DNA of 64,000 bases, taken from NCBI RefSeq assembly GCF_024223415.1, contig NZ_CP100500.1, one strand, 5' to 3'. This document shows positions 3,526 to 57,278 of this stretch, in pieces. This DNA is from Escherichia coli. Its GTDB lineage: Bacteria; Pseudomonadota; Gammaproteobacteria; Enterobacterales; Enterobacteriaceae. The position numbers were made by a program, and so were the translations under genes. Under the pieces are notes generated by a model that searched no databases, had not been told where the DNA came from, and saw only the letters and a list, made by a program, of their open reading frames with translations. Positions within the stretch are counted from its first letter, which is position 1. Each line of letters opens with the position of its first letter.

Positions 3526-3528
3526 GGT

Positions 3529-4854
3529 TTGATGATGTTGCCGTTTCTGAAAGCGCCTGCCGATGCGCCATTAATGACTGATAAATATGAAATTGATGCC
3601 CGCTATCGCTACTGGCGTCGGCATATTCTGCTGACCATCTGGCTGGGTTACGCGCTGTTTTACTTCACGCGGAAAAGTTTTAACGCCGCCGTACCAGAAA
3701 TCCTTGCTAACGGCGTGCTCAGCCGTAGCGATATCGGCCTGTTAGCGACCCTGTTTTACATTACCTATGGCGTGTCGAAGTTTGTCTCCGGCATTGTCAG
3801 CGATCGCTCAAATGCCCGTTATTTTATGGGGATAGGGCTTATCGCCACGGGCATTATCAACATTCTGTTTGGCTTCTCGACGTCGCTATGGGCGTTTGCC
3901 GTACTCTGGGTGCTGAACGCCTTTTTCCAGGGCTGGGGTTCACCGGTGTGTGCGCGTCTGTTAACCGCCTGGTATTCTCGTACCGAGCGCGGCGGTTGGT
4001 GGGCATTATGGAACACGGCGCATAACGTCGGCGGCGCACTCATTCCCATTGTGATGGCAGCGGCTGCACTACATTACGGCTGGCGTGCCGGGATGATGAT
4101 TGCTGGTTGTATGGCGATCGTCGTGGGAATTTTTCTCTGCTGGCGGCTGCGCGATCGCCCGCAGGCGTTAGGTTTACCGGCGGTCGGTGAATGGCGACAC
4201 GACGCGCTGGAGATAGCTCAACAACAAGAAGGGGCAGGGCTGACGCGTAAAGAGATCCTCACCAAATATGTGTTGCTGAATCCGTATATCTGGCTGCTTT
4301 CGTTTTGCTATGTGCTGGTCTATGTGGTCCGGGCGGCGATCAACGACTGGGGCAATTTGTATATGTCCGAGACGCTGGGCGTCGATCTGGTCACGGCGAA
4401 TACGGCAGTGACGATGTTTGAACTGGGTGGATTTATCGGTGCGCTGGTAGCGGGTTGGGGCTCGGACAAATTGTTTAACGGCAACCGAGGGCCGATGAAT
4501 TTGATTTTCGCCGCCGGAATTTTGCTTTCAGTCGGCTCCCTGTGGCTGATGCCATTTGCCAGCTACGTGATGCAGGCAACCTGCTTCTTCACCATTGGTT
4601 TTTTTGTCTTTGGCCCACAGATGTTAATCGGTATGGCGGCGGCAGAGTGTTCCCACAAAGAGGCGGCAGGGGCGGCGACGGGGTTTGTCGGCTTGTTTGC
4701 TTATCTGGGGGCGTCGCTTGCTGGTTGGCCGCTGGCGAAAGTACTCGATACCTGGCACTGGAGCGGATTTTTTGTGGTTATCTCTATCGCCGCCGGGATT
4801 TCCGCACTGCTGTTACTGCCCTTTTTGAACGCCCAGACACCGCGCGAAGCGTGA
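3529..4854 (+). CDS. uhpC: Glucose-6-phosphate sensor/transporter-like MFS protein UhpC
   Basis: 441-aa MFS protein, paralog of UhpT; synteny. Confidence 0.9.
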   Translation: MMMLPFLKAPADAPLMTDKYEIDARYRYWRRHILLTIWLGYALFYFTRKSFNAAVPEILANGVLSRSDIGLLATLFYITYGVSKFVSGIVSDRSNARYFMGIGLIATGIINILFGFSTSLWAFAVLWVLNAFFQGWGSPVCARLLTAWYSRTERGGWWALWNTAHNVGGALIPIVMAAAALHYGWRAGMMIAGCMAIVVGIFLCWRLRDRPQALGLPAVGEWRHDALEIAQQQEGAGLTRKEILTKYVLLNPYIWLLSFCYVLVYVVRAAINDWGNLYMSETLGVDLVTANTAVTMFELGGFIGALVAGWGSDKLFNGNRGPMNLIFAAGILLSVGSLWLMPFASYVMQATCFFTIGFFVFGPQMLIGMAAAECSHKEAAGAATGFVGLFAYLGASLAGWPLAKVLDTWHWSGFFVVISIAAGISALLLLPFLNAQTPREA

Positions 4855-6428: not shown

Positions 6429-8195
6429 TTATTCCGTGACTTCCAGCGTAGTGAAGGCAAACTTCTCGCCATCAAATAGCCCCTGACTGGTTAGTTTTAG
6501 CGCGGGGATCACTGGCAGAGAAAGAAACGCCATCTGAATAAACGGCTCATCGGGTAACGGACCGCATTCACGGGCGGCGGCTTTCAAGGCGTCAATTTGT
6601 TCCGCCAGCGACTGCGCCGTGTCGGTGCTCATCAGCCCGGCAATGGGTAACGGCAGATGACTTTGTACCTGGCCGTTACGTACCACGCACAGCCCGCCGC
6701 CATCCTGAATCACCTGATTGACCGCCAGCGCCATCTCTTCGGCACTGCGACCGATCACCACAATATTATGGCTGTCATGGCTGACCGTCGCAGCCAGCGC
6801 ACCTTCATTCAGTCCAAAGCCGCCAAGCAAACCACAAGCCGGAGCCAGCCGTTGCCCGTAACGCTCAAGTACGGCAATAAAGCTCACATCATCGCGATCA
6901 AAACCATTTTCGCTGTAGACGCTGGAGTGGGAGTGCGTAATCAATTCGTTATGGATGACGTCAATGACCCGATAGCGTTTTCCGGGCGTAAATTGCAGGG
7001 CAAAGTCGCTGGCGGAAACTGGCTGGCGGGCAATGGTGTTGCCATATGGCGGAGCGGATTGTGCCAGTCTCGCCGACTCTTCCGCCTGTAAGGTTTGCGC
7101 ATCAATCGGCTCGCCTTTCACCAGTACCTGCTGCACCGTGACCTTACGCGCATCGCTCAACAGGACGATATCGGCCTGCTTGCCGGGTGCCAGTAAGCCG
7201 AGGTGATTCAGACCAAAGTGGCGCGCCGTCGACCAGCTGGCGACGCGATATGCCACATGCAGCGGCACATTGTGTTGTTCGATCAGGCGGCGAATTAAGG
7301 CATCGATGTGTCCTTCATGGGCGATCTCCCACGGGTTACGGTCATCGGTACAGAGCATGCATTGCGGGCTGTTAAATTCGTTGATCAACGGTGCCAGCGC
7401 GTTGAGATTGCGGGCAGCGGACCCTTCGCGGATCATCAACGACATGCCGAGTTGTAATTTCCGGCGTCCTTCTTCCAGCTGATAACTTTCGTGGCAGTTT
7501 TCAATACCCGCAGTAATATAGGCGTTAAGTTCTTTACCACCCAAACCCGGGCAGTGACCGTCCAGCGTCAGGTGGCGAAATGCATCCAGTTTATCGAGCA
7601 GCGCATTCTGCCCGCTAATTACGCCAGGGTAGTCCATCATTTCTGCAAGGCCGGTAACCTGCGGATGGTCCCGCCAGGCGAGCATCTGTTCAAGGGTAAA
7701 ACTGGCACCGTTAACATCGCAGCCTTCCAGGGCGGGTACGCAAGAGCTGACCTGTAAGTACTGGTTTTGCCTTGCCTGTTCGGCACAGCGGGCAAACCAG
7801 GCGAATCCGGCTTCGCCCATCACGTTGACGATTTCATGAGGGTCGCAAATAACGGTCGTCAGGCCGCGCGGCAGGGTAGCGGTTTCAAAAGTGACCGGCG
7901 TCATCATGCTGGATTCAATATGCAGGTGAGCATCAATAAACCCTGGCACCGCCGTTGCGCCGCGAGCATCAATCCGCTGCAAAGCCGGAGCATCAGTGTA
8001 TTCTGCGCCAACACCGGCAATGTAACGTCCTTTAATCACAATTGGGCCGGAAATTTCTCCGCCATTGATCAGGTCGAGAATAGAGACATTATCAATAATA
8101 TAATCGGCAACAGCGTCGCCACGGGAAACGGCTAACAATTCCTGGTATTCAGCCCGGCTAATGTGATGAAATTTATGGTTAATAGAATTATTCAT
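6429..8195 (-). CDS. ade: Adenine deaminase
   Basis: 588-aa ORF with amidohydrolase metal-binding motifs ([11 protein letters not shown]); K-12 synteny. Confidence 0.92.
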
Positions 8196-8368
8196 ATTTT
8201 TCTCATTTTGATTTTATCAATTTGATTATTATTTATCATAAAGAAACGTCGCGAGATTATTAAAGAATATCCATTAATGTGCAATTGAAATGTGATAATT
8301 ATCACTGAACCGTTGTTGTCATTTGTTTTACAAAAGCAAGGGATTAAATCTCCTCCAATGGACAAAAA

Positions 8369-12164: not shown

Positions 12165-12983
12165 ATGAAACTGACAACACATCATCTACGGACAGGGGCC
12201 GCATTATTGCTGGCCGGAATTCTGCTGGCAGGTTGCGACCAGAGTATCAGCGATGCAAAACACATTAAAGTTGGCGTTATAAATGGCGCAGAACAAGATG
12301 TCGCGGAAGTCGCTAAAAAGGTGGCAAAAGAGAAATATGGCCTCGATGTTGAACTGGTAGGATTTAGCGGTTCGTTGCTACCGAACGATGCGACAAATCA
12401 TGGCGAACTTGATGCGAATGTCTTCCAGCATCGACCCTTTCTTGAACAAGATAATCAGGCGCATGGTTATAAACTGGTAGCGGTGGGAAATACGTTTGTC
12501 TTCCCTATGGCGGGTTATTCCAAAAAAATCAAAACCGTGGCGCAAATAAAAGAAGGCGCGACAGTGGCGATCCCCAACGACCCGACCAACCTTGGTCGCG
12601 CACTTTTACTGTTGCAAAAAGAGAAGCTAATTACTCTGAAAGAGGGAAAAGGGTTATTACCTACCGCGCTGGATATAACCGATAATCCTCGTCATTTGCA
12701 GATTATGGAACTCGAGGGGGCGCAGCTCCCGCGCGTACTGGATGATCCCAAAGTTGATGTAGCGATTATCAGCACCACTTACATTCAGCAGACCGGGCTT
12801 TCTCCGGTGCACGACAGCGTATTTATTGAAGATAAGAATTCGCCGTATGTGAATATTTTGGTGGCACGGGAAGATAATAAGAATGCAGAAAACGTGAAGG
12901 AATTTCTGCAATCTTATCAATCACCCGAAGTCGCTAAAGCGGCAGAAACCATTTTTAACGGTGGCGCGGTGCCTGGCTGGTAA
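12165..12983 (+). CDS. nlpA: Lipoprotein-28 (methionine-binding lipoprotein family)
   Basis: 272-aa ORF with lipobox LLAGC; recognised as NlpA. Confidence 0.9.
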   Translation: MKLTTHHLRTGAALLLAGILLAGCDQSISDAKHIKVGVINGAEQDVAEVAKKVAKEKYGLDVELVGFSGSLLPNDATNHGELDANVFQHRPFLEQDNQAHGYKLVAVGNTFVFPMAGYSKKIKTVAQIKEGATVAIPNDPTNLGRALLLLQKEKLITLKEGKGLLPTALDITDNPRHLQIMELEGAQLPRVLDDPKVDVAIISTTYIQQTGLSPVHDSVFIEDKNSPYVNILVAREDNKNAENVKEFLQSYQSPEVAKAAETIFNGGAVPGW

Positions 12984-12986
12984 TTC

Positions 12987-13910
12987 TCACTTATGCCGCG
13001 CCGGACGATTTATTTTTCTGGCGCGGCGACGGGAATCCATTGAAATCAAAATCACCGATGACAGAATCAGCAGCGTTCCCAGCCAGTCCGGTAATGTGAA
13101 CGTGATCCCCAGCAACAGCAAAGAGAGTAGCGCGCTACTTAATGGTTCTGCACAGCTCAAAATGCTGGCTTTTGGACCGCCAATTAATTGTGCTCCTTTC
13201 AGGTACAGACTAAATGTCAGGGACGTACCAATGACCACCAAATAAAAAAACGCCAGAATCAAACTGCCGTTAACGACAAAGTTTGTTCCTTGTCTGGCAT
13301 AAAAAGGCAACAGAATCAGACCGCCAATCAGCATACTCCAGCCGACGACTGGTAACGTGCCATAGCGGGCAATTAGCGTTGAGGGATAGGTGGTATAGAA
13401 TGCAGCAGCAAATGCCGAGGCAATGCCCCAGAACAACGCGGCAGGAGAGATCGATAATGACGTCGGATTACCGTGTGTCACCAATAAAAAAGTCCCGACC
13501 AGCGATGTCAAAATAGCGCAGAAAACCAGAATGCCCGGGCGCGATTTACGCACCAGTGAGAACCAGGCGACGATAATCGTCGGTGAGAGGAATTGCAGCA
13601 CCGTTGCCGTGGCTGCGTTCGATTTTTCGATGGTTAGCAAAAAAGTGAGCTGTACAGTTAGCGCGCCAACCACGGAAAAAATCAGCAGGCTAATGGCATC
13701 TTTATGATTGTTAATAATAGAAAAGATTTTATCGCCATGAACAAATGACAGCGTCAGTAGAATCAAACCGGCGAATATCAAACGCGTCATAGTCAAAAAC
13801 TGCGACGACATCTGGCTTTGCTCCATGATGTATTGCGCGCAGACCCCTGAACTTCCCCACAACACGGCGGCAATCAGAACGTTCAGCATCCCCTTTCTGG
13901 TGGAACCCAT
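12987..13910 (-). CDS. yicL: EamA/DMT-family inner membrane transporter
   Basis: 307-aa 10-TM ORF; synteny. Confidence 0.85.
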
Positions 13911-14020
13911 TTTTCCCTCTGCATACTGTTTTGTCGTTTATGTATGCAGGCATGATAGCAAAAATGGCGAGGATGGCTCTGTTTGCGCCACGCCGATTTT
14001 TCTTAGTCCAGACTGGTGAG

Positions 14021-15205
14021 CTAAATATCTTTAATAAACAGCAAGCAAATCATCGCAATACCCAACATCCCTATCGCCAGCCAGAACAACGCATGGTAGC
14101 TCCAGATTTCAACCATAATTCCGTCAACAGAGCCGGCGATAATCCAGCCGACGCGTGAAGTATTTGCATATAACGTTGTCGCAGAGCCTATTTTTTCAGG
14201 CATCAGGTCCTGAAAATAAAGCATGCCGATACCACAGAGAATACCAAGGAAGATGGCATTTAGAATTTGCAATTCCAGCTCAACTGCCGGAGTCGTCGCC
14301 ATGAGTACGCTGGCGTAAAAACACATTCCACTCACGATAGCAATGAGCATTAATAGCCGCTTGCCAATACGTTTCATGTAATAGCCTGCGATTAACATCA
14401 TCGGAATTTCCAGACCGGCAGCGATACCAATCATTTCTCCAGCCAGTTTATCGGTTAGATGCAGTTCATCAATAATAAATAGCGGCATATTTATCATGTA
14501 GAGATTATTCGCCGCCCACATCATTGAACAGACCACAAAAAGTAGCCGCGTATCCCGCTTCCTGTGGGTGGAGGGTAAAATTTCTATGGGTTGGGTAACG
14601 ACAGGAATATTTCTTTGTATTGATGGCAAAAACAACCAGACTATCAGTCCGCAAACAACAAATGCGATGGCAGCGGTGAGATACATCACTTTAAAACTAA
14701 ATCCCATAGCCAGTTCATAAGCGAGCGGTGGCCCGATAACCCAGGCAAGCGAGATCTGAGCACGTAAAAATGTACTGAACATGACCGTCTCACGGCCTGT
14801 TCTGTCGGCGTGTTCACGGGCGAGAGCGAACATTTGCGGGTTTGCGGTAGAAGCAAAACTACTCAGAAGTACGCCCGTAGAGAGCAGAATGAAGTAGTTG
14901 CGATTCCACGCAAAAAGCGTGCAGGCCAGCACTCCAAATAAGCAACATAGCAGGATCAGTAATTTACGGTCGCCTTGTTTATCGGAGTGCCTTGCCAGAA
15001 ATTGACTGACCAGAATTCCCATAATAGCGCTACCGGTGAAGAAAAAACCTACCATTATAGGACGGGCTTTCAGTTCATCTGCGAGGAATATACTTAGGGT
15101 AGGAGTCTGAAGAGCGCCCGCAATACCCGTCAGAAAGGCGACAAGTAAAAATGCCGCGGCAGTGAGATCAAGTATTTTTGATGGAGTGGTAGCCGTTTTT
15201 TGCAT
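14021..15205 (-). CDS. setC: Sugar efflux transporter C-like MFS protein
   Basis: 394-aa MFS ORF; position next to selC att remnant. Confidence 0.85.
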   Translation of the reverse strand: MQKTATTPSKILDLTAAAFLLVAFLTGIAGALQTPTLSIFLADELKARPIMVGFFFTGSAIMGILVSQFLARHSDKQGDRKLLILLCCLFGVLACTLFAWNRNYFILLSTGVLLSSFASTANPQMFALAREHADRTGRETVMFSTFLRAQISLAWVIGPPLAYELAMGFSFKVMYLTAAIAFVVCGLIVWLFLPSIQRNIPVVTQPIEILPSTHRKRDTRLLFVVCSMMWAANNLYMINMPLFIIDELHLTDKLAGEMIGIAAGLEIPMMLIAGYYMKRIGKRLLMLIAIVSGMCFYASVLMATTPAVELELQILNAIFLGILCGIGMLYFQDLMPEKIGSATTLYANTSRVGWIIAGSVDGIMVEIWSYHALFWLAIGMLGIAMICLLFIKDI

Positions 15206-43552: not shown

Positions 43553-43920
43553 CGAATTCAAAAACGCATTAACCGACAGTAATTAAATGAGAGGGACGTG
43601 TCAGAAGAGGCTTCCCCTTATTTTATACGTCCAGTTCGGTAAAGAGTATTAGCCCACAGGACGAGGCTTATCCGAAACTACAACTCTGAAGGATTTAGTT
43701 AATCGCTTTAGAATTTCCAACTTCCGTTCCTCGCTCACAGCAGACCTTAAGATCTAGGAGGGAGTCCGCTCAGTGCCATGGGCGGACCTTAAGCTTCAGT
43801 AATTTGATTAGCACAATCCCTATGATAAATAGACTGGCCCCCTGAATCTCCAGACAACCAGTATCACTTAAATAAGTGATAGTCTTAATACTAGTTTTTA
43901 GACTAGTCATTGGAGAACAG

Positions 43921-44286
43921 ATGATTGATGTCTTAGGGCCGGAGAAACGCAGACGGCGTACCACACAGGAAAAGATCGCAATTGTTCAGCAGAGCTTTGA
44001 ACCGGGGATGACGGTCTCCCTCGTTGCCCGGCAACATGGTGTAGCAGCCAGCCAGTTATTTCTCTGGCGTAAGCAATACCAGGAAGGAAGTCTTACTGCT
44101 GTCGCCGCCGGAGAACAGGTTGTTCCTGCCTCTGAACTTGCTGCCGCCATGAAGCAGATTAAAGAACTCCAGCGCCTGCTCGGCAAGAAAACGATGGAAA
44201 ATGAACTCCTCAAAGAAGCCGTTGAATATGGACGGGCAAAAAAGTGGATAGCGCACGCGCCCTTATTGCCCGGGGATGGGGAGTAA
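43921..44286 (+). CDS. insC: IS2 InsC (OrfA)
   Basis: Start [18 protein letters not shown], as in IS2. Confidence 0.9.
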
Positions 44287-45149
44287 GCTTAGTCAGCCGT
44301 TGTCTCCGGGTCTCACGTGCGCAACTGCATGCCATGGCCCGTCGGTCGAAGGACTGGCAGGATCGTCGGTGCAAGCGCAAGCCTGATGATACTGACGCGC
44401 TGGCCCGTATCCATACCGTTATCGGCGATCTGCCCACCTATGGTTATCGTCGGGTATGGGCACTGCTGCGCAGACAATCAGAAACTGACGACATGGCGGT
44501 GATCAATGCCAAACGCGTATACCGCATCATGCGTCAGAATGCGCTGCTGCTTGAGCGTAAACCGGAAATACCGCCATCGAAGCGGGCGCATACAGGGAAA
44601 GTGGCCGTTGGAGAAAGTAACCAGCGGTGGTGCTCTGACGGCTTCGAGTTCAGCTGTGATAACGGTGAAAAACTGCGGGTCACGTTCGCTCTGGACTGTT
44701 GCGATCGCGAGGCACTTTACTGGGCGGCCAGTAACGGTGGATATGACAGTGAAACCGTGCAGGACGTCATGCTGGGTGCCGTGGAGCGTCGTTTCGGTAA
44801 CAGCCTGCCGACATCCCCAGTTGAGTGGCTGACAGACAACGGTTCAGCCTACCGTTCTTATCAGACGCGTCAGTTCGCCAGAATGGTAGGACTGGAGCCT
44901 AAACATACGGCGGTACGTAGCCCGGAAAGCAACGGGATGGCAGAGAGCTTCGTGAAAACGATGAAGCGCGATTACATCAGCATCATGCCGAAACCCGACG
45001 GGTTAACAGCGGTAAAGAACCTTGCGGAGGCCTTCGAACATTACAACGAATGGCATCCGCATAGTGCACTGGGGTATCGTTCGCCACGGGAATATCTGCG
45101 GCGGCGAACCAGTAATGGGTTAAGTGATAAAAAGTGTATGGAAATATAG
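44244..45149 (+). CDS. insD: IS2 InsD (OrfB, DDE transposase)
   Basis: 301-aa ORF as in IS2. Confidence 0.9.
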
Positions 45150-45160
45150 GGGCCAATCCA

Positions 45161-45540
45161 ATTGCACTGTTTCGAGGCTATCCGGCGACGATAAGAACTG
45201 ACCAGGGGCCGGAGTTCACTTGCCGTGCACTGGATCAATGGGCCTTTGAGCATGGTGTTGAGTTGCGCTTAATCCAGCCGGGCAAGCCAACGCAGAACGG
45301 ATTTATTGAGAGCTTTAACGGACGATTTCGCGATGAATGTTTGAATGAGCTCTGGTTCAGCGATATCGTTCATGCCAGGAAAATTATTAATGACTGGCGG
45401 CAGGATTATAACGAATGCCGCCCGCACTCCACGCTGAATTATCAGACACTGTCTGAATTTGCAGCGGGCTGGAGAAAGGGTCATTCTGAGAATGAAGATT
45501 CCGACGTTACTAACTGAGTGTTGTATCTAATCGTGGGGGC
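45161..45540 (+). pseudogene. C-terminal fragment of an IS3-family transposase OrfB, truncated by IS2
   Basis: Frame reads ..[52 protein letters not shown]..; no 5' part or orfA present. Confidence 0.7.
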
Positions 45541-46196
45541 AGGTCACAGCTATACGGACACGGTCAAATAGAGCACTTGCTATAACTGATCTTAAACATC
45601 CTAAATTTGATGTTAGAGTTCAGATACATAGTTCTGCCGCAAGGTATGCAGATAAGTTAGCTGCTGAAATAGTTTCAGCATATTATGATAACTCTGAGCT
45701 GGCATATGAAAGCGATTCTCCGTTTCAATTTGGTGTTATTCGAGTTCCTCGTAACGCTACTCACTTTGAGCATTCATTATATGAAAAGTACTCAGGACTT
45801 AATAAGTTCGAGGCTCCTTTTGCTGAGGCTTTAGATAGGTCTGGTTACCCTTGGCACAGAAACCTGAGCAGTGGCGGTTTTCATATCCCACTATTGACAG
45901 AGGGTGATACAAGCTCATTTTATCCAGACTTTTTAGTATGGAAGTCAGACCTTGTCTATTGCCTTGATACCAAGGGGGGCCATCTATTGACTGCTGCCGT
46001 AGCGCGCAAGCTTTTTAATATTCATGAAGATGGTCGGAGTAAGATTCTAGTGAGATTTATCACAGAAGGAAAGCAGACAGAGCTGCGCGGCAAAGCAACA
46101 AAGGGAGGATATACTGTATGGAAAATGAAATCTGGGCATCCTACCCCAATTTATGTGGCGGATTTAGACAAAGCTGTTAGGGAATGTCTAAAATAG
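45541..46196 (+). pseudogene. C-terminal remnant of a PD-(D/E)xK nuclease-like protein (restriction/defence-enzyme-like)
   Basis: Open frame with no plausible start reaching the IS fragment; motif YPDFLVWKSDLVYCLDTKG matches PD...(D/E)xK spacing. Confidence 0.45.
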
Positions 46197-46342
46197 CGAA
46201 GCCATAGCATAGAATTTTTAATGGCATTATGATCAGGACATAAAGGACTTCATGCAGGGAAAAAATATCCCAAAAGAAACTGGTCATGTCAGCACACCAA
46301 AGGATCCTCGCCGGATCCTTTGGTTTTTCTCAGCCACAATCG

Positions 46343-46380
46343 CTTAACGTGAGTTTTCGTTCCACTGAGCGTCAGACCCC
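46343..46380 (-). repeat. Solo Tn3-type 38-bp terminal inverted repeat (outer end at 46380)
   Basis: cttaacgtgagttttcgttccactgagcgtcagacccc is the reverse complement of GGGGTCTGACGCTCAGTGGAACGAAAACTCACGTTAAG. Confidence 0.8.
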
Positions 46381-46455
46381 TATAAACACCTTAGTGAAGT
46401 CATCCTCGCAGGTAAGGCAACACATCCGTAAGGTATTTGGCCAAATCAAATACAA

Positions 46456-47451
46456 CTAGATTGACTCGCGGGGAAGCCAGGGACTCTCAACTATCACTTT
46501 ATCCCGGTGGGTGTCACCATTGATAATGTGCAGTGTACTTAAGCGCCCAATTTCATAATGCGGTAGCTGGACCGTGGATAATGGGGGTAAAAATAAGTTT
46601 CCAATGCCTACAAGATTGTCATAGCCAAGAACGGCAATATCCTGTGGGATTCTGATACCCTGCGTTAACAATGTTTGATACACCATAAATGCAATACGAT
46701 CGTTACCACAGATGACCGAATCAAATCGCGGTTTCCCCTGTTCGATATGCGCCAGCAACATCTCCGGAATATCTCGGTAGTGCTCATCGCCGAATTGCAT
46801 ATAGCAGTGCTCAAGCGTATCAGGATCGATACTGGCTTCCCTGCAGGCGCGATCAAGCCCACGACGACGACGACGCGTCGCCAGATGGTTGACGGGTAAA
46901 TGCAGGCATAGAGGGCGGCTGTATCCTGCTGCCAGCAGTGCCTGTACGGCCGTATACTGGCCATGTTCATCGTCAGGTATATAGCTGGCAACCGGCTCTC
47001 CCTTGTTCTCGCAGTTGGCCAGAACGCAAGGAAGCTCCAGTAACCGGGGAGGAATACTGACTTCACGCAGCCCCATGGTAGTAAAAATGATCCCCCCGGG
47101 TCGATGGGCGAGCAGCAGGTCGACAATATCGTCAGGATTATCATCGGTAAACATATTCACCACAAAGCTGTTCCAGCCATACGCCCGCGCGGTTTCTTCA
47201 ATAGACAGCGTGATTTCTACTGAAAAAGGAGTGGTGACCGTATCCAGCGCAAGCACACCAATCGTTTTGTTCCGGGTGCCAACACGACGAATCTGCTGGG
47301 CAGAAAGGTCTGGCACATAATTTAACTGCGTGATCGCCTCCTGCACCCGAGCCAGAGTCTCAGGCTTTACGCGTTTCGGGTCATTCAGCACCCGTGAAAC
47401 CGTCATGAGCGATACATTGGCCAGTTTGGCCACATCCTTTAAAGACGCCAT
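46456..47451 (-). CDS. fosR: LacI/GalR-family repressor of the fructooligosaccharide locus
   Basis: 331-aa ORF with N-terminal HTH and periplasmic-binding-like domain; divergent from the operon. Confidence 0.75.
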   Translation of the reverse strand: MASLKDVAKLANVSLMTVSRVLNDPKRVKPETLARVQEAITQLNYVPDLSAQQIRRVGTRNKTIGVLALDTVTTPFSVEITLSIEETARAYGWNSFVVNMFTDDNPDDIVDLLLAHRPGGIIFTTMGLREVSIPPRLLELPCVLANCENKGEPVASYIPDDEHGQYTAVQALLAAGYSRPLCLHLPVNHLATRRRRRGLDRACREASIDPDTLEHCYMQFGDEHYRDIPEMLLAHIEQGKPRFDSVICGNDRIAFMVYQTLLTQGIRIPQDIAVLGYDNLVGIGNLFLPPLSTVQLPHYEIGRLSTLHIINGDTHRDKVIVESPWLPRESI

Positions 47452-47691
47452 AGTTTTCCATTATCTGAATGCATACACCCGGTAAGGTGTTGTGAGCAAA
47501 TGCGAATGCCCTATTCTAGGCACGGACACCCAGGGTTATGCAGACCACTCTGATAAATTTGAGCTAGATCTCAACATTTCAATGTTAACGTTAACTTTTG
47601 TGATTAACATCGACAAACAAATCAAAATCGAGTGTCCCCCCAAAATGATAACGTTACCATATTAGCATATCCTTCTTACGAGATTACGTAG

Positions 47692-48930
47692 ATGAAAAAA
47701 CGGCCTACTCGAAGTTACATGCTGCTCAGCGCTCTGCTGTTCTTTTTCTTTGTGACCTGGTCCTCATCAAGTTCACTGCTCTCAATCTGGCTTCACCAGG
47801 AAGTGGGGCTAAAAGCATCGGAAACCGGCATTATTTTTTCAGTATTATCCGTCTCCGCGCTCTTCGCGCAGGTCTGTTATGGCTTTATTCAGGACCGACT
47901 TGGTCTGCGCAAACATTTGTTATGGTTTATCACCGCGTTGTTGATCCTCTCCGGCCCGGCTTATCTGCTTTTTAGTTATTTGCTGAGCGTTAATATTCTG
48001 CTGGGCAGCGTATTCGGGGGCTTATTTATCGGGCTGACGTTTAATGGGGGTATCGGCGTTCTGGAGTCCTATACCGAGCGCGTCGCGCGTCAAAGTACCT
48101 TTGAGTTTGGGCGGGCACGCATGTGGGGGTCTCTGGGCTGGGCAGTTGCCACGTTTTTTGCCGGGTTACTGTTTAATATCAACCCTGACCTTAACTTCCT
48201 GGTGGCTTCATGCTCAGGGTTAATCTTCTTCTGCCTCCTGGCCCGATTAAAGGTGGCCGCGCCGGCAAGCATGGAGAAACTCGAAATTGGCGCTAAAAAA
48301 GTTTCTCTGGAAGACGCCCTGCGTCTGCTTACTCTGCCGCGCTTCTGGGCACTGATATTCTTCGTGGTCGGAACCTGCATTTACGGCGTATACGATCAGC
48401 AATTCCCGGTCTATTTCTCATCACAGTTCCCGACATTACGCGAAGGGAACGAGATGTTTGGCTATTTAAACTCTTTCCAGGTCTTTCTCGAGGCCGCAGG
48501 TATGTTTTGTGCGCCGTGGCTGGTTAATCGCATTGGTGCTAAAAATGGTCTGATATTCGCAGGAATGGTGATGGCGCTGCGCATGATTGCTTCAGGGCTG
48601 GTGGAAGGCCCCCTGCTTATCTCCATTACCAAACTGCTTCACGCGGTCGAACTGCCAATATTGTTAGTCGCCATATTTAAATACAACAGTCTGAATTTCG
48701 ACAAACGTCTCTCCTCCACCATTTATCTGGTGGGATTTGCCTGCACCAGCTCCGTCATTGGTACCGTATTGTCCCCGCTGGCAGGCTTTAGCTATGAGAG
48801 ATTTGGCTTCGCCCAATCCTATCTGATCATGGGCATCATGGTGTTCAGCACCACGTTTATTTCCATTTTCCTTTTGCGCTCAACTAAATCCTCATCTGAG
48901 CCATCTTTTCTGCAGCAAAAAGCTGTGTAA
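47692..48930 (+). CDS. fosT: Oligosaccharide:H+ symporter (LacY/CscB family)
   Basis: 412-aa 12-TM ORF; first gene of the operon. Confidence 0.75.
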   Translation: MKKRPTRSYMLLSALLFFFFVTWSSSSSLLSIWLHQEVGLKASETGIIFSVLSVSALFAQVCYGFIQDRLGLRKHLLWFITALLILSGPAYLLFSYLLSVNILLGSVFGGLFIGLTFNGGIGVLESYTERVARQSTFEFGRARMWGSLGWAVATFFAGLLFNINPDLNFLVASCSGLIFFCLLARLKVAAPASMEKLEIGAKKVSLEDALRLLTLPRFWALIFFVVGTCIYGVYDQQFPVYFSSQFPTLREGNEMFGYLNSFQVFLEAAGMFCAPWLVNRIGAKNGLIFAGMVMALRMIASGLVEGPLLISITKLLHAVELPILLVAIFKYNSLNFDKRLSSTIYLVGFACTSSVIGTVLSPLAGFSYERFGFAQSYLIMGIMVFSTTFISIFLLRSTKSSSEPSFLQQKAV

Positions 48931-48949
48931 TGTACTGAGAATAAAGACG

Positions 48950-50383
48950 ATGACATCCTTATTAGAACAGGCTGAACAGGTGCTTGAAAAAGCACAATCC
49001 GGGATTAATCCGCGCTGGTATCCGCGCTATCACCTCGCCCCTCGCGCAGGCTGGATGAATGATCCTAATGGCCTGGTATGGTTTGACGGCTGGTATCACG
49101 CCTTTTATCAACACCATCCCTACTCCCCGAAATGGGGTCCGATGCACTGGGGGCACGCCCGAAGCAAAGATCTGGTGCATTGGGAACATTTGCCCGTCGC
49201 GCTAGCGCCGGAAGGCCCGGCGGACAAAGACGGCTGTTTCTCAGGTTCCGCCGTGGTGGACGGCGATACGCTGGCGCTCATCTATACCGGACATAAATTT
49301 CACGGCCCGTCGGACACTGACGACAACCTCTACCAGGTGCAGTGTCTGGCGACCAGTCGTGACGGCATCCATTTTGAACGGCACGGCAAGGTGATTGATA
49401 CACCGCCCGGACTGCATCACTTTCGCGATCCGAAGGTGTGGCGCGAAGGTGAGTTCTGGTACATGGTTGTCGGTTCCCGCGTGGAAAATACCGGTCAGGT
49501 GCGCCTGTACCGTTCCACCGATCTCCGCGAATGGCATGACGAAGGTATTTTCGCCGAGGCTGATGAAGGCAAGGGCTTTATGTGGGAATGCCCGGATTTC
49601 TTCCCCCTGGGAGAGAAGCGTGTCCTGATGTTCTCGCCGCAGGGCATGGCGGCGGAAGGGTATCACTATCGCAACCTGTTCCAGAGCGGCTATTTACTTG
49701 GGGACTGGCAGCCAGGTCAACCGTTCACCCACAGCGGACAATTTACTGAGCTGGACCACGGCCACGACTTTTATGCCCCGCAGAGTTTCCTGACCCCGGA
49801 TGGCCGACGCATTGTCATCGGGTGGCTGGATATGTGGGAATCATCGATGCCCGAACAGCAGGATGGCTGGGCCGGAATGCTCTCGCTTCCTCGCGAATTA
49901 AGCCTTGTCGATGGTCGTGTGAGAATGAAACCTGCTGCCGAAGTGACCGCGCTGCGTGGCAGCTATTATCCCACGCCCGTCCGCTGTCTGAACAATCAGA
50001 ACGTCCTTGTCGCGGCAAATGCCGACGCGGTCGAAGTTCAGTTGGCATGGGATTTGAGCGCATCGACGGCTGAACAGTTTGGTATCGCGTTGGGCGACGG
50101 GTTGAGAATTTACGTCGATGATCAGGCTGGGCGTCTGGTGGTGGAGCGCCGCTATCCGGAATATTCGCTGGAAGGCACTCGCAGTATTCCGCTTCCAGCA
50201 GACAGCGTTCTGTCACTGCGAATTTTTATTGACCGCTCATCGGTGGAAGTTTTTGTTAACGATGGTGACGCTTGCTTAAGCAGTCGTATTTATCCGCAGC
50301 CGGGCGAGCGTGATATTTCATTGTTTGCAAATCTGGGGAAGGCCTCATTATACGATGCGGGATACTGGTCTTTAGATAAATAA
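48950..50383 (+). CDS. Cytoplasmic GH32 beta-fructofuranosidase (FosGH1-like)
   Basis: 477-aa ORF with GH32 N-terminal motif WMNDPNG and no signal peptide. Confidence 0.8.
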   Translation: MTSLLEQAEQVLEKAQSGINPRWYPRYHLAPRAGWMNDPNGLVWFDGWYHAFYQHHPYSPKWGPMHWGHARSKDLVHWEHLPVALAPEGPADKDGCFSGSAVVDGDTLALIYTGHKFHGPSDTDDNLYQVQCLATSRDGIHFERHGKVIDTPPGLHHFRDPKVWREGEFWYMVVGSRVENTGQVRLYRSTDLREWHDEGIFAEADEGKGFMWECPDFFPLGEKRVLMFSPQGMAAEGYHYRNLFQSGYLLGDWQPGQPFTHSGQFTELDHGHDFYAPQSFLTPDGRRIVIGWLDMWESSMPEQQDGWAGMLSLPRELSLVDGRVRMKPAAEVTALRGSYYPTPVRCLNNQNVLVAANADAVEVQLAWDLSASTAEQFGIALGDGLRIYVDDQAGRLVVERRYPEYSLEGTRSIPLPADSVLSLRIFIDRSSVEVFVNDGDACLSSRIYPQPGERDISLFANLGKASLYDAGYWSLDK

Positions 50384-50547
50384 TTCTCCGTTCCGACCTG
50401 TTTCTTGCAGGGTGAGTTTTTATTTCTGCCAGTCTCTGGCTGGCATGTTATTGTCTGGAATAATGAGAGAGCAAAATGGATGAAAGCGTAATACCTCAAA
50501 ATTGCATTACCTCGAAAGATAAAAATATATTTGTTCCAGGAAAACAG

Positions 50548-51741
50548 ATGCTGGCATTAATGGTGACATTAGCAGCATTTCCTGCCATTGCTGAAGACGT
50601 TACAGGAAACTATCAAAGCTATTTTCAGGATGAATCAGACACCAACGGTACGAGTGTTTCATTAGCCAATCAAGGCAATGAAAAATCATCCCTTAGCGCT
50701 TCATCTTCTCCGGTTGCTGCAGGTCAAAAACCTGAACTCACGACCTCGTCAAAGCCAGTGACGTTATCGGCACCAATGGAGAATAAGAAAACTGCAGTAG
50801 AAAAACGTCCTAAAGGGGATAACCCTGAAGATGTCAGTCTGTTGCGTTTAAGGCAGGAAGATCCGCCGGTTCACTGGAACAGTATTGGTCGTAACATGGA
50901 AGTGGGTAGCTTGCATGGGAACATTGGATCTCAGATAGAAATTGACGATGTTCGCTGGAGCAATAATAAGAAAAACAGCGGCAAGTTTAAACTCGCCACC
51001 ATTCAGGCTTTTTTAAGGCACGATGAATTGCCTAACTGGTATTTCGGTTTCTGGAATGCCAGAGAAGACAGTTATAAAGGACAGTTCAGTAATCAGGACT
51101 ATAAAGGCACCAATACCATCAATGAATTTTTTGTGGGCCATATTTTCGAAACCTGGCGGGGTAATATCGGTACGGAAGTCATGGTCGGCTCCGAAACGGC
51201 AACTAAACGCTGGAAAAACCGGTTCAAAGTCTGGCAGGACCTGCGACTGTCCAACAAATGGAGCCTGGCCGGATACGCGTATGGCGAGTATCAGCCTCAG
51301 GGGAACGAACCGGGGAATGGCGATCTGGAGCAGTACATTTTCGAAATTGAGCCAGCCATTCAATACCGCGTGAATCCGGATCTCGGACTCTATTTGCGGC
51401 CCTATTATTACCATAACCGCCAGGAGCGTCAGAGCTGGGGCGACATTGTAGAAGAAGAATGGAAAGTCACGGCCGGGCTCTGGCGAAACTGGTATCCATT
51501 ATTAACCTCCCTGTATGTTGGATTTGGCCAGGACAAAATAGATAACGCCAGCAATGCCAGCGAAGTTTTCTATGACGGCCGTTATAAGTTTATCGGTGGA
51601 ACGCTGAGTTATCCGGTATTTGGTGAGGTGCGATTATATGGTGAATTCAAGGCACAATTTACGAAAGAAACCGGACTTTGGACATCAACCGGTCACTCAT
51701 GGAATCCGTTTACCGTGGTTGGCGTGAATTATAACTTCTGA
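50548..51741 (+). CDS. Putative outer-membrane beta-barrel protein (FosX/FosY-like; alternative start 50476)
   Basis: Signal peptide MLALMVTLAAFPAIA; aromatic-rich; C-terminal ...VGVNYNF. Confidence 0.6.
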   Translation: MLALMVTLAAFPAIAEDVTGNYQSYFQDESDTNGTSVSLANQGNEKSSLSASSSPVAAGQKPELTTSSKPVTLSAPMENKKTAVEKRPKGDNPEDVSLLRLRQEDPPVHWNSIGRNMEVGSLHGNIGSQIEIDDVRWSNNKKNSGKFKLATIQAFLRHDELPNWYFGFWNAREDSYKGQFSNQDYKGTNTINEFFVGHIFETWRGNIGTEVMVGSETATKRWKNRFKVWQDLRLSNKWSLAGYAYGEYQPQGNEPGNGDLEQYIFEIEPAIQYRVNPDLGLYLRPYYYHNRQERQSWGDIVEEEWKVTAGLWRNWYPLLTSLYVGFGQDKIDNASNASEVFYDGRYKFIGGTLSYPVFGEVRLYGEFKAQFTKETGLWTSTGHSWNPFTVVGVNYNF

Positions 51742-51755
51742 TATTCAGGTGTAGC

Positions 51756-53249
51756 ATGAAAAAATTAATAGTTGCGGCATCTTTCGCTCTGCTTGCGCTT
51801 TCGCTCGGCAATAACCCTGCCTGGTCACAGCCTTCGAAAGAGACATTACAGAATAAAAGCATCACCCATATTAATGGCTTTTTTCCGAGGGTTGAAGGTT
51901 CATTCGTGGGCGACCCTATGCCCGTTTTTAACGATGGCAAATTTGATATTTATTATCTTAATGATGTCCGAGGCGGCAGCGATCTGGGGGTACATGCTTT
52001 TCATCTCTTGTCGAGTGCCAACTTGTATGATTATCAGAACCATTCGGAAGTGATCCCCTACGTTAACGACGTTGACGATCCTGAACTGTTATTGGGAACC
52101 GGTTCGATTATTAAAGTCGGCGATACCTGGCATGCCTGGTACACCGCACACAATGAAAATGTGTTCCCGGTTGAGTCTGTTATGCACGCGACCAGTAAGG
52201 ACCGCCTTCACTGGGTGAAACACCCGCAGGACACCCTGTTACCCGGCGGTAACTATCGGGGTAATGATTTCAGGGACCCTCACGTCGTTTGGGTTGAGGA
52301 AAAGAAAGAATACTGGATGTTAATTACTACGCGCAGTAATGGGCGTGGGGTTATTGCCCGATACAGTTCAACGGATTTAAAGCACTGGGAAGATCGCGGC
52401 GTATTTTTTGATAACGACACCATCACCAGCAATGCCAACCTCGAATGCCCGACACTGGTTTACTTCAACGGACGCTGGTATCTCAGCTTTAGCGACCAAT
52501 GGCCGTTACGCCTGACACAATACCGGGTTGCGGACAATCCGGAGGGGCCGTGGCGGAAACTGGACAATTATGTGGTCGACGGCTCAGGTTTTTACGCGGG
52601 TAAACTGGTTCTCAAAAACGATCGGCTGTTTGTTTTCGGCTGGATCCCGACGAAAGCCGGTAACCGTGACAGCGGCAACATTGATTGGGCAGGGAATCTG
52701 GTTGCTCATGAGCTCACCGCAGATGCCCAGGGCCAGCTCAACAGCATCCTCCCCCAGGAGCTTCAGAAGGTCATCAGTGAGAATCCTGGCCCGGAAACCA
52801 CCTTGACGAGCACTAAGACACTCAAAACGGACACGTCGTTCGGCCCCTTACAGTCGGCGCTGTACCCGGCCTTGCCTGAGCGCGGTGAGTTGAGTGCAAC
52901 CATCGATGTTCCTTCTGCCGGAATGGTGATGAGCTTTGGTCTGACCGACGACAGAGTCAGTGATGCGATGCTGAACGTTGTGTTCAATAAGAGCAAAGGA
53001 AAAGTCTATTTTTTCAACGCGCCGCTAGCGTCGATTCATCAGGCTAACGCGGAATCCTGGGTGGACATTCCGATCGGGGAAAAAATTGAGTTACGCGTTC
53101 TCATACAAAACTCAATTGCTGTCTTTTATATAAACAACAAAGTGGCATTCAGTACCCGGATGTATTCCATGCAGGAGAAACCGTGGAGTATTAGCCTGCC
53201 TCAAAACGACCATTTTCACGCGACGTTGAAAATAAAAGAAATGATTTAA
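51756..53249 (+). CDS. Secreted/periplasmic GH32 fructan hydrolase (FosGH2-like)
   Basis: 497-aa ORF with signal peptide MKKLIVAASFALLALSLG and GH32 motifs. Confidence 0.8.
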   Translation: MKKLIVAASFALLALSLGNNPAWSQPSKETLQNKSITHINGFFPRVEGSFVGDPMPVFNDGKFDIYYLNDVRGGSDLGVHAFHLLSSANLYDYQNHSEVIPYVNDVDDPELLLGTGSIIKVGDTWHAWYTAHNENVFPVESVMHATSKDRLHWVKHPQDTLLPGGNYRGNDFRDPHVVWVEEKKEYWMLITTRSNGRGVIARYSSTDLKHWEDRGVFFDNDTITSNANLECPTLVYFNGRWYLSFSDQWPLRLTQYRVADNPEGPWRKLDNYVVDGSGFYAGKLVLKNDRLFVFGWIPTKAGNRDSGNIDWAGNLVAHELTADAQGQLNSILPQELQKVISENPGPETTLTSTKTLKTDTSFGPLQSALYPALPERGELSATIDVPSAGMVMSFGLTDDRVSDAMLNVVFNKSKGKVYFFNAPLASIHQANAESWVDIPIGEKIELRVLIQNSIAVFYINNKVAFSTRMYSMQEKPWSISLPQNDHFHATLKIKEMI

Positions 53250-53261
53250 CGGGATATTATT

Positions 53262-54275
53262 ATGAAAAACTATCATGCCCTGTCTGTTATTTTTACTCTT
53301 ATGTTACCCGCGCTGGCGAATGCGAGCATGAGCATCATGAAGGATCCGTCTGGAAAGGTTATCGCCGTGGACCCTTGGTCATATCTTGATGAAGATGTTA
53401 TGTGGACCTCAGCCCGCTCCTCCAATCCTGCCGGTGGCCGCGTTCATGGCCAACTGAAAATGAAATATGCCATTGAGGATAATAACTGGCGTAACAGCCA
53501 TTTCCACAACGGGAATGATTCGCTGACGTTTGTACAAGGTGTGATGCGGCACGATGCGTTACCCGGTTGGTATCTGGCTTTCTCTGAGGGCAGAACCACT
53601 AACTATAACGGGACGTGGGAGGATCAGTCTTACCTCAGCCAAAACCAGTGGACTCAGTTGATCATCGGCCATGAATATTTTTACAAGCGTCTGCGCTATG
53701 GCTGGGATGTGATGGGAGGAAGCGCCTCAATCGAAGACCGCTGGCAAGGCCGCGTTAAGTTCTTTACCGATCTTCGGGTTACGGATAATTTCTCATTCTT
53801 TAACTACCTGTATCAGCAGATCGATCACCGGCGCAGCGGTGGGTCGCAAAACGACCGTGACGTGCGTTCATTTCAGATTGAGCCAGGCGTGCAATACATT
53901 ATTAATAACAACACCGGTGTCTGGTTCCGCCAGCAGTTCGCATCTGCCATTTTAGACAGGGCGCAGTGGGGCGATATCGACGAAAAAAGCTGGACCACGT
54001 CAGTCGGCGTCTGGCGAAACTGGGGGAAGTTATCCACAACGCTCAGCGGCGGTTATGGTCATTATAAGAAATACAATGCGCAACCTGAGGATGGCGAAGT
54101 CTTTCAGAATACCCGCAATCGCTTCCTGAAGGTATCGGCAAATTATCCTTTGACCTCTCGTTTTACCGTGTCCGGAGAAGTTACTGGTTCGTTGATCAAA
54201 CAGAACGGAAGTTGGGTCACTAACGGTGAGGCCATTACCACTGAGTATAAGCTGATGCTGGATTATAACTTTTAA
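53262..54275 (+). CDS. Putative outer-membrane beta-barrel protein, paralog of 50548..51741 (FosX/FosY-like)
   Basis: Signal peptide MKNYHALSVIFTLMLPALANA; C-terminal ...LMLDYNF; shared motifs with the other barrel ORF (LPNWYFGFW / LPGWYLAFS). Confidence 0.6.
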   Translation: MKNYHALSVIFTLMLPALANASMSIMKDPSGKVIAVDPWSYLDEDVMWTSARSSNPAGGRVHGQLKMKYAIEDNNWRNSHFHNGNDSLTFVQGVMRHDALPGWYLAFSEGRTTNYNGTWEDQSYLSQNQWTQLIIGHEYFYKRLRYGWDVMGGSASIEDRWQGRVKFFTDLRVTDNFSFFNYLYQQIDHRRSGGSQNDRDVRSFQIEPGVQYIINNNTGVWFRQQFASAILDRAQWGDIDEKSWTTSVGVWRNWGKLSTTLSGGYGHYKKYNAQPEDGEVFQNTRNRFLKVSANYPLTSRFTVSGEVTGSLIKQNGSWVTNGEAITTEYKLMLDYNF

Positions 54276-54388
54276 ACCGTACGCTGGATAATCCATGCCA
54301 CCTGAACACGCTGAAGCGTTAGTAAAAATAGTGACCTTACCGCAGGTCACGTTTAAAAAAACAAGTTAATTATTATTAAGGAAATATC

Positions 54389-55351
54389 ATGAATATCTGG
54401 ACTCTTGGCGATGCTGTTGTTGATCTTCTACCCCTTACAGATATGCAATTTCGTGCTTGTGCAGGAGGTGCGCCATTTAATGTTGCGATAGGTACTGCAC
54501 AATTGAAATGTCGTACCGGCTTTATAGGTCGCGTAGGGGATGACGATTTTGGCCATTTCCTGAGAAAAACTCTCGAAGATTCAGGAGTTTCTACACAATG
54601 TATCCAAATGGATAAATATCATCGTACAAGTACAGTACTGGTTTCTCTTAAAGATCAGGGAGAACGTGGTTTTACATTTCTTACGAACCCTTCAGCCGAC
54701 CAATTTCTAACACAAGATGCCCTTCCAGCTTTTAGTGATGATATCCTGCATTTTTGTTCACTTGCGCTGGTTGCTGCAGATTGCCGCACGACTTTGACTA
54801 AAGCAGTCCAGGAAGTCATTGACCACGGTGGACTTATCAGCTTTGATGTTAATTTACGAGACCAAATGTGGCGTGATAAGGAAGAAATGTTTGCGACAGT
54901 GAGTCAATTCGCTGAAAAAGCCGATATCCTTAAACTCTCTGAAGAAGAGTGGTACTGGTTAATGGGTACACATGATTATACAGAGGCGTTAGAAGCACTC
55001 AAAACCCATCCTGCCAGATTAAAAGTGGTCACCTTTGGTGCGAGAGGTTCATTGGTATTATGGCAAGATATGGTGATACATTTCAGAGGATTTAATGTTA
55101 AAAGTATTGACACAACAGGCGCTGGAGATGCTTTTATGGCTGGGTTACTTGCCAGCATCGCCAATAAAGGTTTGCCAATGAATTTTCCAGAACTTCAATT
55201 AGCAATCACTCAGGCCAGTGCCACCGGAGCGCTCGCAACTACCAAAAAAGGTGCACTTACCGCCCTTCCTGATACAGCCGCACTGGAAACGTTCATTAAT
55301 CATTTTCCATTACCGGGCTATGAGATCCTTGGAGCAACCGCTACGGTGTAA
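54389..55351 (+). CDS. fosK: Fructokinase (PfkB/ribokinase family)
   Basis: 320-aa ORF with PfkB motifs (GGAPFNVA..., DTTGAGDAF). Confidence 0.85.
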   Translation: MNIWTLGDAVVDLLPLTDMQFRACAGGAPFNVAIGTAQLKCRTGFIGRVGDDDFGHFLRKTLEDSGVSTQCIQMDKYHRTSTVLVSLKDQGERGFTFLTNPSADQFLTQDALPAFSDDILHFCSLALVAADCRTTLTKAVQEVIDHGGLISFDVNLRDQMWRDKEEMFATVSQFAEKADILKLSEEEWYWLMGTHDYTEALEALKTHPARLKVVTFGARGSLVLWQDMVIHFRGFNVKSIDTTGAGDAFMAGLLASIANKGLPMNFPELQLAITQASATGALATTKKGALTALPDTAALETFINHFPLPGYEILGATATV

Positions 55352-55459
55352 CAACTTTTCATGCTGTATGGTGTAGGAATATAGCAAACGTATCTTCAAT
55401 TGTTAGTTATGACCTCTAGAAGTATGAGATATCTTTTGTAGATAATCATGGCTGTGTAT

Positions 55460-55486
55460 GGGCAGCCTTATACTGCCCCTTTTTCT
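55460..55486 (+). terminator. Intrinsic terminator downstream of the fos operon
   Basis: gggcag-ccttata-ctgccc hairpin followed by cttttt. Confidence 0.55.
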
Positions 55487-55631
55487 ATTACCTTAAGAAA
55501 GATAAGTACAGTTTGCTTTCCTGGAGATTAATGCATGCTCTGGATAGCAATCCTCAACTATCAGCAGAAAGTAGATAAAATTTCAGGGTGGCCCTATAAA
55601 AATCATTAGATGCGTTTCTGACGTTACTTAG

Positions 55632-55943
<312 letters not shown>

Positions 55944-55983
55944 TTACTGATTTAGTGTATGATGGTGATTTTAAGGTGCTTGC

Positions 55984-56259
55984 GTGGCTTCCATTTCCAT
56001 CAGATGTCCTTCCTGCTCCGCTACTGAAGGCGTGGTGCGTAACGGCAAAAGCACTGCCGGACATCAGCGCTATCTCTGCTCTCATTGCCGTAAAACATGG
56101 CAACTACAGTTCACTTACACCGCCTCTCAGCCCGGTACGCACCAGAAAATCATTGATATGGCCATGAATGGCGTCGGATGTCGCGCCAGTGCACGCATTA
56201 TGGGCGTTGGCCTCAACACGGTTTTACGTCACTTAAAAAACTCAGGCCGCAGTCGGTAA
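55984..56259 (+). CDS. insA: IS1 InsA
   Basis: 91-aa ORF with zinc finger [15 protein letters not shown]... Confidence 0.9.
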
Positions 56260-56681
56260 CCTCGCGCATACAACCGGGCAGTGATGTGATTGTCTGCGCT
56301 GAAATGGACGAACAGTGGGGCTACGTCGGTGCTAAATCACGTCAGCGCTGGCTGTTTTACGCGTATGACAGGATACGGAGGACGGTTGTGGCGCACGTCT
56401 TCGGTGAACGCACTCTGGCCACACTGGAGCGTCTTCTGAGCCTGCTGTCGGCCTTTGAGGTCGTGGTATGGATGACGGATGGCTGGCCGCTGTATGAATC
56501 ACGCCTGAAGGGAAAGCTGCACGTTATCAGCAAGCGTTACACTCAGCGCATTGAGCGACATAATCTGAATCTGAGACAACATCTGGCAAGGCTGGGACGG
56601 AAGTCACTGTCGTTCTCAAAATCGGTGGAGCTGCATGACAAGGTCATCGGGCATTATCTGAACATAAAACACTATCAGTAA
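56178..56681 (+). CDS. insB: IS1 InsB (expressed as an InsAB' fusion by frameshift)
   Basis: 167-aa ORF overlapping insA in the -1 frame. Confidence 0.85.
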
Positions 56682-57278
56682 GTTGGAGTCATTACCAACG
56701 GTAAATATCCATAAGTGTGGGCTTGCGGAATAAATAGTTTGGTTAAAGATAAGGTGGTTTAATACTGCTGAGTATTTTATAGGAGATATGATGTTGTTTT
56801 ATAAACAAACTAAAAAACATGAAGTTTAATTGATAGGGGACAATGAAATCTCCTTTTTAAACTCAATTGCTATGTTGGGTTTATGGGGTTGCTATAAACG
56901 GTTTTGAATAAACGCTTTACTATTCTCATGAAAACAGTGTTATGTTGTTATTTTAACAACCCCGCATTGTTTTTTGATGGGATGGGTATTAAGACTTTAG
57001 AGAAACTTTATAAATAAATATATGTATTCAATAGTGGCGAAAATAATAACCCATCTTATTATTACATTGTGGAAGTGCTCTTTTTTATTATCGCTCATGT
57101 TTTACCTTTCTGTTAAAACATATTCTTTCGGATATGTAAAATGGTAAGAGATAGTTAATCTACGTATGCATGGGGGCGTTTCATTGCATGGCGTTATAAT
57201 CTGGCTTGTATATAAAGGCACTATAAGTTTTACTCTTACAGTGCCTTTATTTGGCCATGATTTACCCTCTACAATAAA

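Follow-up and report, generated by a model that had tools for sequence, protein, structure and literature searches.

In the window, the 64-kb stretch (64,000 nucleotides) of Escherichia coli DNA analyzed here, the left flank of the fos locus (PMC3325963) is built from the remains of mobile elements. A complete, 1,331-bp ISEc27 (43830–45160, plus strand) lies flush with the 3′ fragment of an ISSen4 (45161–45546, plus strand), which abuts a start-less open frame (45546–46196, plus strand) that blastn and tblastn identify as codons 576–791 of 791, plus stop, of the res gene of transposon Tn7442. Beyond the frame are the res intrinsic terminator (46296–46329, plus strand) and a solo 38-bp terminal inverted repeat from the cargo end of Tn7442 (46343–46380, minus strand). 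The outer end of this repeat, at 46380, touches the pentanucleotide TATAA (46381–46385). The first fos gene, fosR, which encodes a LacI-family repressor, follows on the minus strand (46456–47451; ORF list and RefSeq), its stop 75 bp from the transposon end. Further left, the core genes nlpA, yicL, and setC occupy positions 12165–15205. Published work associates the fos island with selC; no tRNA gene, selC included, was found in the 64-kb window by ARAGORN or at Rfam gathering thresholds, and selC may lie outside the window. The sole Rfam match in the window, to IS102 RNA (31398–31634, minus strand, 73 bits), points to an IS102/IS903-type element in the island.

The frame is open from 45531, ends at a TAG stop (46194–46196), and aligns by tblastn with Res residues 572–791 at 98%. 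Homology to res begins at 45546/45547, base 45546 being common to the end of ISSen4, and the sequence holds no plausible start codon for the frame. A first-pass annotation of this DNA had described a start-less frame of 218 aa at 45541–46196. The missing start and the position of the stop stand, but the codon phase is that of 45543/45546 with 216 codons of homology, and translation from 45541 gives 13 stops. The PD-(D/E)xK-type motif that the same annotation had recognized is confirmed: YPDFLVWKSDLVYCLDTKG is present, and the catalytic motif region (45900–45974, plus strand) contains E120 (45900–45902), P128-D129 (45924–45929), and D142-T143-K144 (45966–45974), all kept in at least 90% of 21 aligned homologues. 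The fold predicted for the fragment is PD-(D/E)xK, with the E...PD...DTK motif conserved. The 217-aa fragment has 56 homologues, several called 'type III restriction enzyme' by their source, and no match among curated families. We conclude that the frame preserves the endonuclease domain of a divergent type III Res, whose N-terminal helicase region is absent from the fragment in the window (residues 576–791 only). At position 45994 the remnant has a C where all eight plasmid copies compared have an A, replacing a conserved Asp/Glu by Ala (HLLTDAVARK to HLLTAAVARK). This Asp-to-Ala change is consistent with pseudogene decay.

The match to Tn7442 continues to the outer end of the repeat. Window positions 45546–46380 align by blastn with Tn7442 positions 7515–8349 at 99.76% identity, with 2 mismatches in 835 bp. 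The aligned stretch, about 10% of Tn7442, comprises the 3′ 27% of res, the res terminator, and the 38-bp terminal repeat. Chance is no concern, since the 38/38 match of the repeat is embedded in the 835-bp match. Tn7442 is an 8,349-bp Tn3-family hybrid that carries a Tn1-type tnpA, tnpR, and a type III mod and res pair (Antimicrob Agents Chemother 2022, PMC9664867). The tnpA half of the element is the same as Tn1, and REBASE predicts the target CCGCAG for its restriction-modification (R-M) system (PMC9664867). Plasmids of the pOXA-48 type that carry Tn7442 show higher stability, for which the R-M cargo may account, as the authors suggest (PMC9664867). The element in the window is therefore already known as a named, published transposon, and its remnant is not novel.

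The plasmid matches come with tnpA (Tn3 family), tnpR, a 647-aa site-specific DNA methyltransferase, a 791-aa helicase-family protein, and the same 38-mer. Two plasmid copies, L006 and L007, measure exactly 8,349 bp between two perfect 38-bp repeats, and both the length of L006 and its gene order (tnpA / tnpR / mod / res) agree with published Tn7442 (PMC9664867). In intact copies, the 647-aa Mod matches MTase_III at 1.1e-76, which makes it unambiguously a type III methyltransferase, and its stop overlaps the res start, while full-length Res (791 aa) matches Pfam ResIII at its N-terminus (1.4e-6) and PADLOC REase_III (9.8e-9, a weak match). An SF2/ResIII helicase region, a Mod encoded upstream, and a C-terminal PD-(D/E)xK domain together predict a type III Res. 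The enzymes of the EcoP1I/EcoP15I type (Mod2Res) share this arrangement of mod overlapping and preceding res, an N-terminal ResIII/SF2 helicase, and a C-terminal PD-(D/E)xK domain. In contrast to them, the Res of Tn7442 is highly divergent, with weak REase_III profile matches and no match by sequence to solved structures, and the window retains the nuclease domain alone, without helicase or Mod.

These comparisons settle what the first-pass annotation had left as two options, a destroyed Tn3-family transposon with a defence-type passenger or the C-terminus of another Tn3-family gene. It had proposed comparison with intact Tn3-family transposons carrying defence cargo, and the 8,349-bp copies of Tn7442, with their type III R-M cargo, match the 835-bp remnant and identify the former option as the correct one. 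The observations it had named as counting against its reading did not materialize: the frame, as the endonuclease part of Res, corresponds neither to the C-terminus of TnpA nor to a non-nuclease protein, and the repeat agrees exactly with the Tn1/2/3 type.

The stretch at the left of fos is a remnant and not an intact mobile Tn3-family element, as it has no tnpA, tnpR, res site, or second repeat; mod and the helicase part of res, both present in Tn7442, are missing as well. No other fragment of Tn7442 (tnpA, tnpR, or mod) was found in the 64-kb window at the DNA or protein level. The remnant is chromosomal and sits in a genomic island beside fosR, whereas the copies of Tn7442 compared are plasmid-borne. 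A megablast search of 45520–46400 against complete E. coli genomes matched 27 chromosomes, 26 at 100% and one at 99.9% (one mismatch), and the stretch bears no RefSeq annotation in any of the 27. The BEN2908 chromosome has a single matching place, and the region there is identical to the window. Plasmid matches in the same search run from 45546 to the outer end of the repeat and fall inside a gene annotated 'DEAD/DEAH box helicase family protein'.

At 46343–46380 the window reads CTTAACGTGAGTTTTCGTTCCACTGAGCGTCAGACCCC (reverse complement GGGGTCTGACGCTCAGTGGAACGAAAACTCACGTTAAG). This 38-mer matches, at 38 of 38 positions, both ends of the Tn7442-type copies L006, L007, and L002 and the tnpA-side end of a blaTEM-1 Tn3-like element (L017), and at least 5,000 plasmid records contain it at 100% identity. 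The blaTEM transposons Tn1, Tn2, and Tn3 have a 38-bp terminal inverted repeat identical to that of the remnant, but inside the remnant's repeat lies the res terminator region of an R-M cargo, not blaTEM. The exact matches to intact Tn7442 ends and to the blaTEM-1 element uphold the earlier description of a perfect Tn3/Tn2-type repeat. Its orientation was also read correctly, with the outer end at 46380 and the gene remnant inside the former transposon, and the partner repeat that had not been seen by eye is indeed absent from the window at up to 8 mismatches. The terminator, detected by a terminator scan, has a 12-bp stem, a 5-nt loop, and a T-run (hairpin 46296–46324), lies ~100 bp 3′ of the frame stop, and is identical in sequence in intact copies of Tn7442.

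The insertion site can be read from fos loci that lack the transposon. In three of them (plasmids pLR-25_1 and EC1722-1 unnamed2, and the S43 chromosome), the sequence runs uninterrupted as ...GATCGT TATAA ACACC..., and the empty site reads ...GGCAACAGTGATCGT TATAA ACACCTTAGTG..., while in the window the transposon end abuts TATAA. Because these loci read through one TATAA, the transposon inserted at this pentanucleotide, 75 bp beyond the fosR stop. Among the matches listed, 24 further plasmid records have a fosR match that begins exactly at the junction, with no transposon. The right flank of the insertion is TATAA and the empty site holds one TATAA, so that the copy in the window is presumably the survivor of a 5-bp target duplication whose left copy was deleted; 5-bp duplications flank copies elsewhere (TTCTT in L007, CATTT in L002). 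The window contains nothing of the left flank of the empty site, which was therefore deleted along with the first 7.5 kb of the transposon. In transposon-free copies, fos-linked sequence extends at least about 770–850 bp further left.

No repeat–fosR junction was found on plasmids in PLSDB, where the sole full match is a chromosome filed in that database. A search of metagenome contigs for the right junction recovered only the 835-bp and 178-bp variants described below. The progenitor, either a complete Tn7442 at TATAA or the left junction GATCGTTATAA followed by the repeat, was found neither in PLSDB nor in metagenome contigs, and we therefore infer the target duplication and the order of events.

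Large plasmids of E. coli, Salmonella, and Klebsiella michiganensis commonly carry the fos locus (46381–55929), with the transposon site empty. The right boundary of the locus in the window is a remnant of ISKpn26 (IS5 family) followed by IS1 (55629–56698; BEN2908 annotation and blastn), with 55629–55929 matching the ISKpn26 region of S43 and 55923–56698 matching IS1. The proposal that fos is bounded by transposon scars on both sides is thus correct as to the repeat on the left and IS5/IS1 on the right, but the locus does not naturally begin at the repeat. The present left edge is the product of the transposon insertion and a later IS-associated deletion. ISKpn26 lies directly to the right of fosK in the plasmid loci compared and in S43, with a remnant only in the window. 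S43 has two inverted ISKpn26 copies flanking ~17 kb that include fos, a pair that hints at IS5-mediated mobility of the fos module.

On its left side the remnant ends at an insertion sequence. The ends of ISSen4 were defined by comparing interrupted with uninterrupted transposon copies; the complete element is a 1,221-bp member of the IS3 family with ends TGACCTGC...GCAGGTCA. The fragment in the window (positions 836–1221, ending ...GGGGGCAGGTCA) carries the terminal ...GCAGGTCA, is 99.5% identical to complete ISSen4 copies, and has its exact right terminus at 45546. The first 835 bp of ISSen4 are missing, and ISEc27, also of the IS3 family, stands in their place. The ends of ISEc27 (TAGACTGGCCCC... 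and ...GGGGCCAATCCA) we take to be IS2-like, and RefSeq names an ISEc27-family transposase in the identical region of BEN2908. The frame is thus cut on its 5′ side by IS debris, as had been claimed, through the right end of an ISSen4 that is itself truncated by ISEc27.

Insertion sequences also interrupt plasmid copies of the transposon. ISSen4 sits at res codon ~76 in L011 (4577–5797) and between tnpR and mod in L012 (about 2346–3565), and an IS3 lies inside mod in L001 (4820–5982). A site shared by ISSen4 in the window and in plasmid copies was considered and rejected, as the positions in L011 and L012 differ and the insertions are independent. Independent IS3-family insertions in the R-M cargo suggest recurrent inactivation of the restriction system. 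Compared with these IS-truncated plasmid copies, the window is distinguished by an insertion at res codon 575/576, unique among the copies examined, and by the loss of everything to its left. A deletion adjoining Tn7442 has been reported in the delta-Tn1999.7 variant (PMC9664867). Another reduced form is L002 (4135–9835), a Tn7442 derivative of 5,701 bp that has lost most of tnpA and retains two perfect repeats and the CATTT duplication; it is either a non-autonomous R-M-carrying element or the result of a post-insertion deletion.

The junctions are consistent with a history of four steps. The transposon would have entered the AT-rich TATAA, which lies 75 bp 3′ of the fosR stop, in the orientation that points its res end toward fosR, and ISSen4 would then have inserted into res at codon 575/576. 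Everything to the left of ISSen4 would have been lost thereafter: the original left flank of the fos module and the first 7,514 bp of the transposon, with the other repeat, tnpA, the res site, tnpR, mod, and the helicase part of res. Later, ISEc27 would have removed the first 835 bp of ISSen4.

Other strains carry the same scar at different lengths. The remnant starts at 45546/45547, leaving 834–835 bp, in the window, the 27 complete chromosomes, and two metagenome contigs (L019 and L020); at 45907, leaving 474 bp, in SCU-316; at 46203, leaving 178 bp, in NCTC9064, SW070917, and a third metagenome contig (L018); and at 46234, leaving 147 bp, in GDSC2BY4G. All variants (loci L013, L014, L015, L016, and L018) have the same junction of repeat and TATAA-fosR, with ISSen4 abutting the remnant. 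The simplest reading is one ancestral insertion followed by repeated ISSen4-associated deletions. The left neighbor of ISSen4 also varies among the variants, corresponding to window positions 16302, 14066, about 20512, and 16965, and once reaches the core gene yicL.

Taken together, we put a probability of roughly 0.93 on window 45546–46380 being an inert scar, namely the last 835 bp, at the cargo end, of either Tn7442 or a sister hybrid with the same tnpR-mod-res-repeat half. The sister hybrid has the same tnpR-mod-res and cargo-end repeat as Tn7442 with a different tnpA (WP_012817690) and a different other end, GGGGTTTGAGAGCCAATGGAACGAAAACGTACGCTAAG, which diverges at 9 of 38 positions (L004 2060–2097 and 10374–10411; L005; L001). 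A clean 5-bp duplication flanks none of these three sister-hybrid copies. Descent from the sister hybrid rather than from Tn7442 itself is a serious possibility, somewhat short of even odds, given that enterobacterial plasmids commonly carry both and that the two are ~99.8% identical across the 835 bp that survive. The C at 46341 is common to the window and to the sister-hybrid copies L001, L004, L005, and L012, but L007, a true 8,349-bp Tn7442, likewise has it, and the C at 45627 is shared by the window with the Tn7442-type L006 and L002 and with L011, which has a third tnpA allele (WP_012291341). Since the tnpA half is deleted and none of the remnant's three variable sites discriminates, the two sources are not separable.

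Whichever of the two elements it comes from, the remnant is, judging by its gene content, almost certainly inert. It would be unable to restrict DNA because it has no start codon, promoter of its own, helicase domain, or Mod partner, and unable to transpose because it has no transposase and one end only. Read-through from ISSen4 or ISEc27 is possible.

An unlikely alternative concerns the solo repeat, which is a perfect 38/38 TnpA recognition sequence; binding of TnpA to it is the one residual activity that is conceivable. Where plasmid-borne elements of the Tn1/2/3 type are present, it could still be a live binding site for their TnpA, making the fos region immune as a target or giving rise to rare one-ended or cointegrate events. 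A single repeat reportedly suffices for Tn3 immunity, as Lee, Bhagwat and Heffron are said to have found in 1983. Target immunity in the Tn3 family is mediated by TnpA together with the terminal repeats (PMC9579193). The endpoints of all four deletion variants (45547, 45907, 46203, and 46234) spare the terminator and the repeat, as would be expected if the repeat were maintained; however, four endpoints within 909 bp of neutral sequence are no statistical evidence of selection, deletions into fosR would be lost for other reasons, and it is speculative that immunity at a chromosomal locus would affect fitness. If the repeat were active, it could mark or mediate events that may have moved plasmid-borne fos into the chromosomal island.

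Much less probable still is expression of the frame, or of an internal 100-codon ORF starting at TTG 45894, as an independent PD-(D/E)xK nuclease acting in defence or as a toxin. The E..PD..DTK motif is intact and lies wholly within the ORF (45894–46196), and 26 of the 27 complete genomes carry exactly the same sequence and the remaining one differs at a single base, but this conservation reflects the recent common ancestry of the island, and the frame is partly or completely deleted in other lineages. There is no ATG or GTG start, no Shine-Dalgarno sequence is visible before 45894, and upstream there is no promoter-like site in the correct orientation, the sole plus-strand match being at 46165, close to the stop. 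Such a product would lack the N-terminal part of the fold, and the conserved Asp is replaced by Ala. To recognize and cleave DNA, a type III Res of the EcoP15I type needs its own helicase domain together with Mod. Finally, many vectors of the pBR322 and pUC types carry the 38-mer, which also occurs in a shuttle-type Staphylococcus plasmid record, but contamination by a cloning vector or an assembly artefact is rejected as practically negligible, for the bases just inside the repeat are those of Tn7442 and not of bla or ori, and the same junction recurs in 27 independently assembled complete chromosomes and three metagenome contigs.

The preferred reading, an inert scar of Tn7442 or its sister hybrid, opens no new biological question; its use lies in annotation and in the history of the island. 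A stretch that is blank in 27 complete E. coli chromosomes can be labeled as a truncated Tn7442 with a partial res and a terminal repeat. For the island, the scar records that a plasmid-type transposon with an R-M system once sat beside fos, and the chromosomal fos region is linked to the plasmid gene pool because fos is common on large plasmids in which the site is empty. The locus also illustrates how a defence system is erased, and a genomic island worn away step by step, by IS elements, in this case ISSen4 followed by ISEc27.
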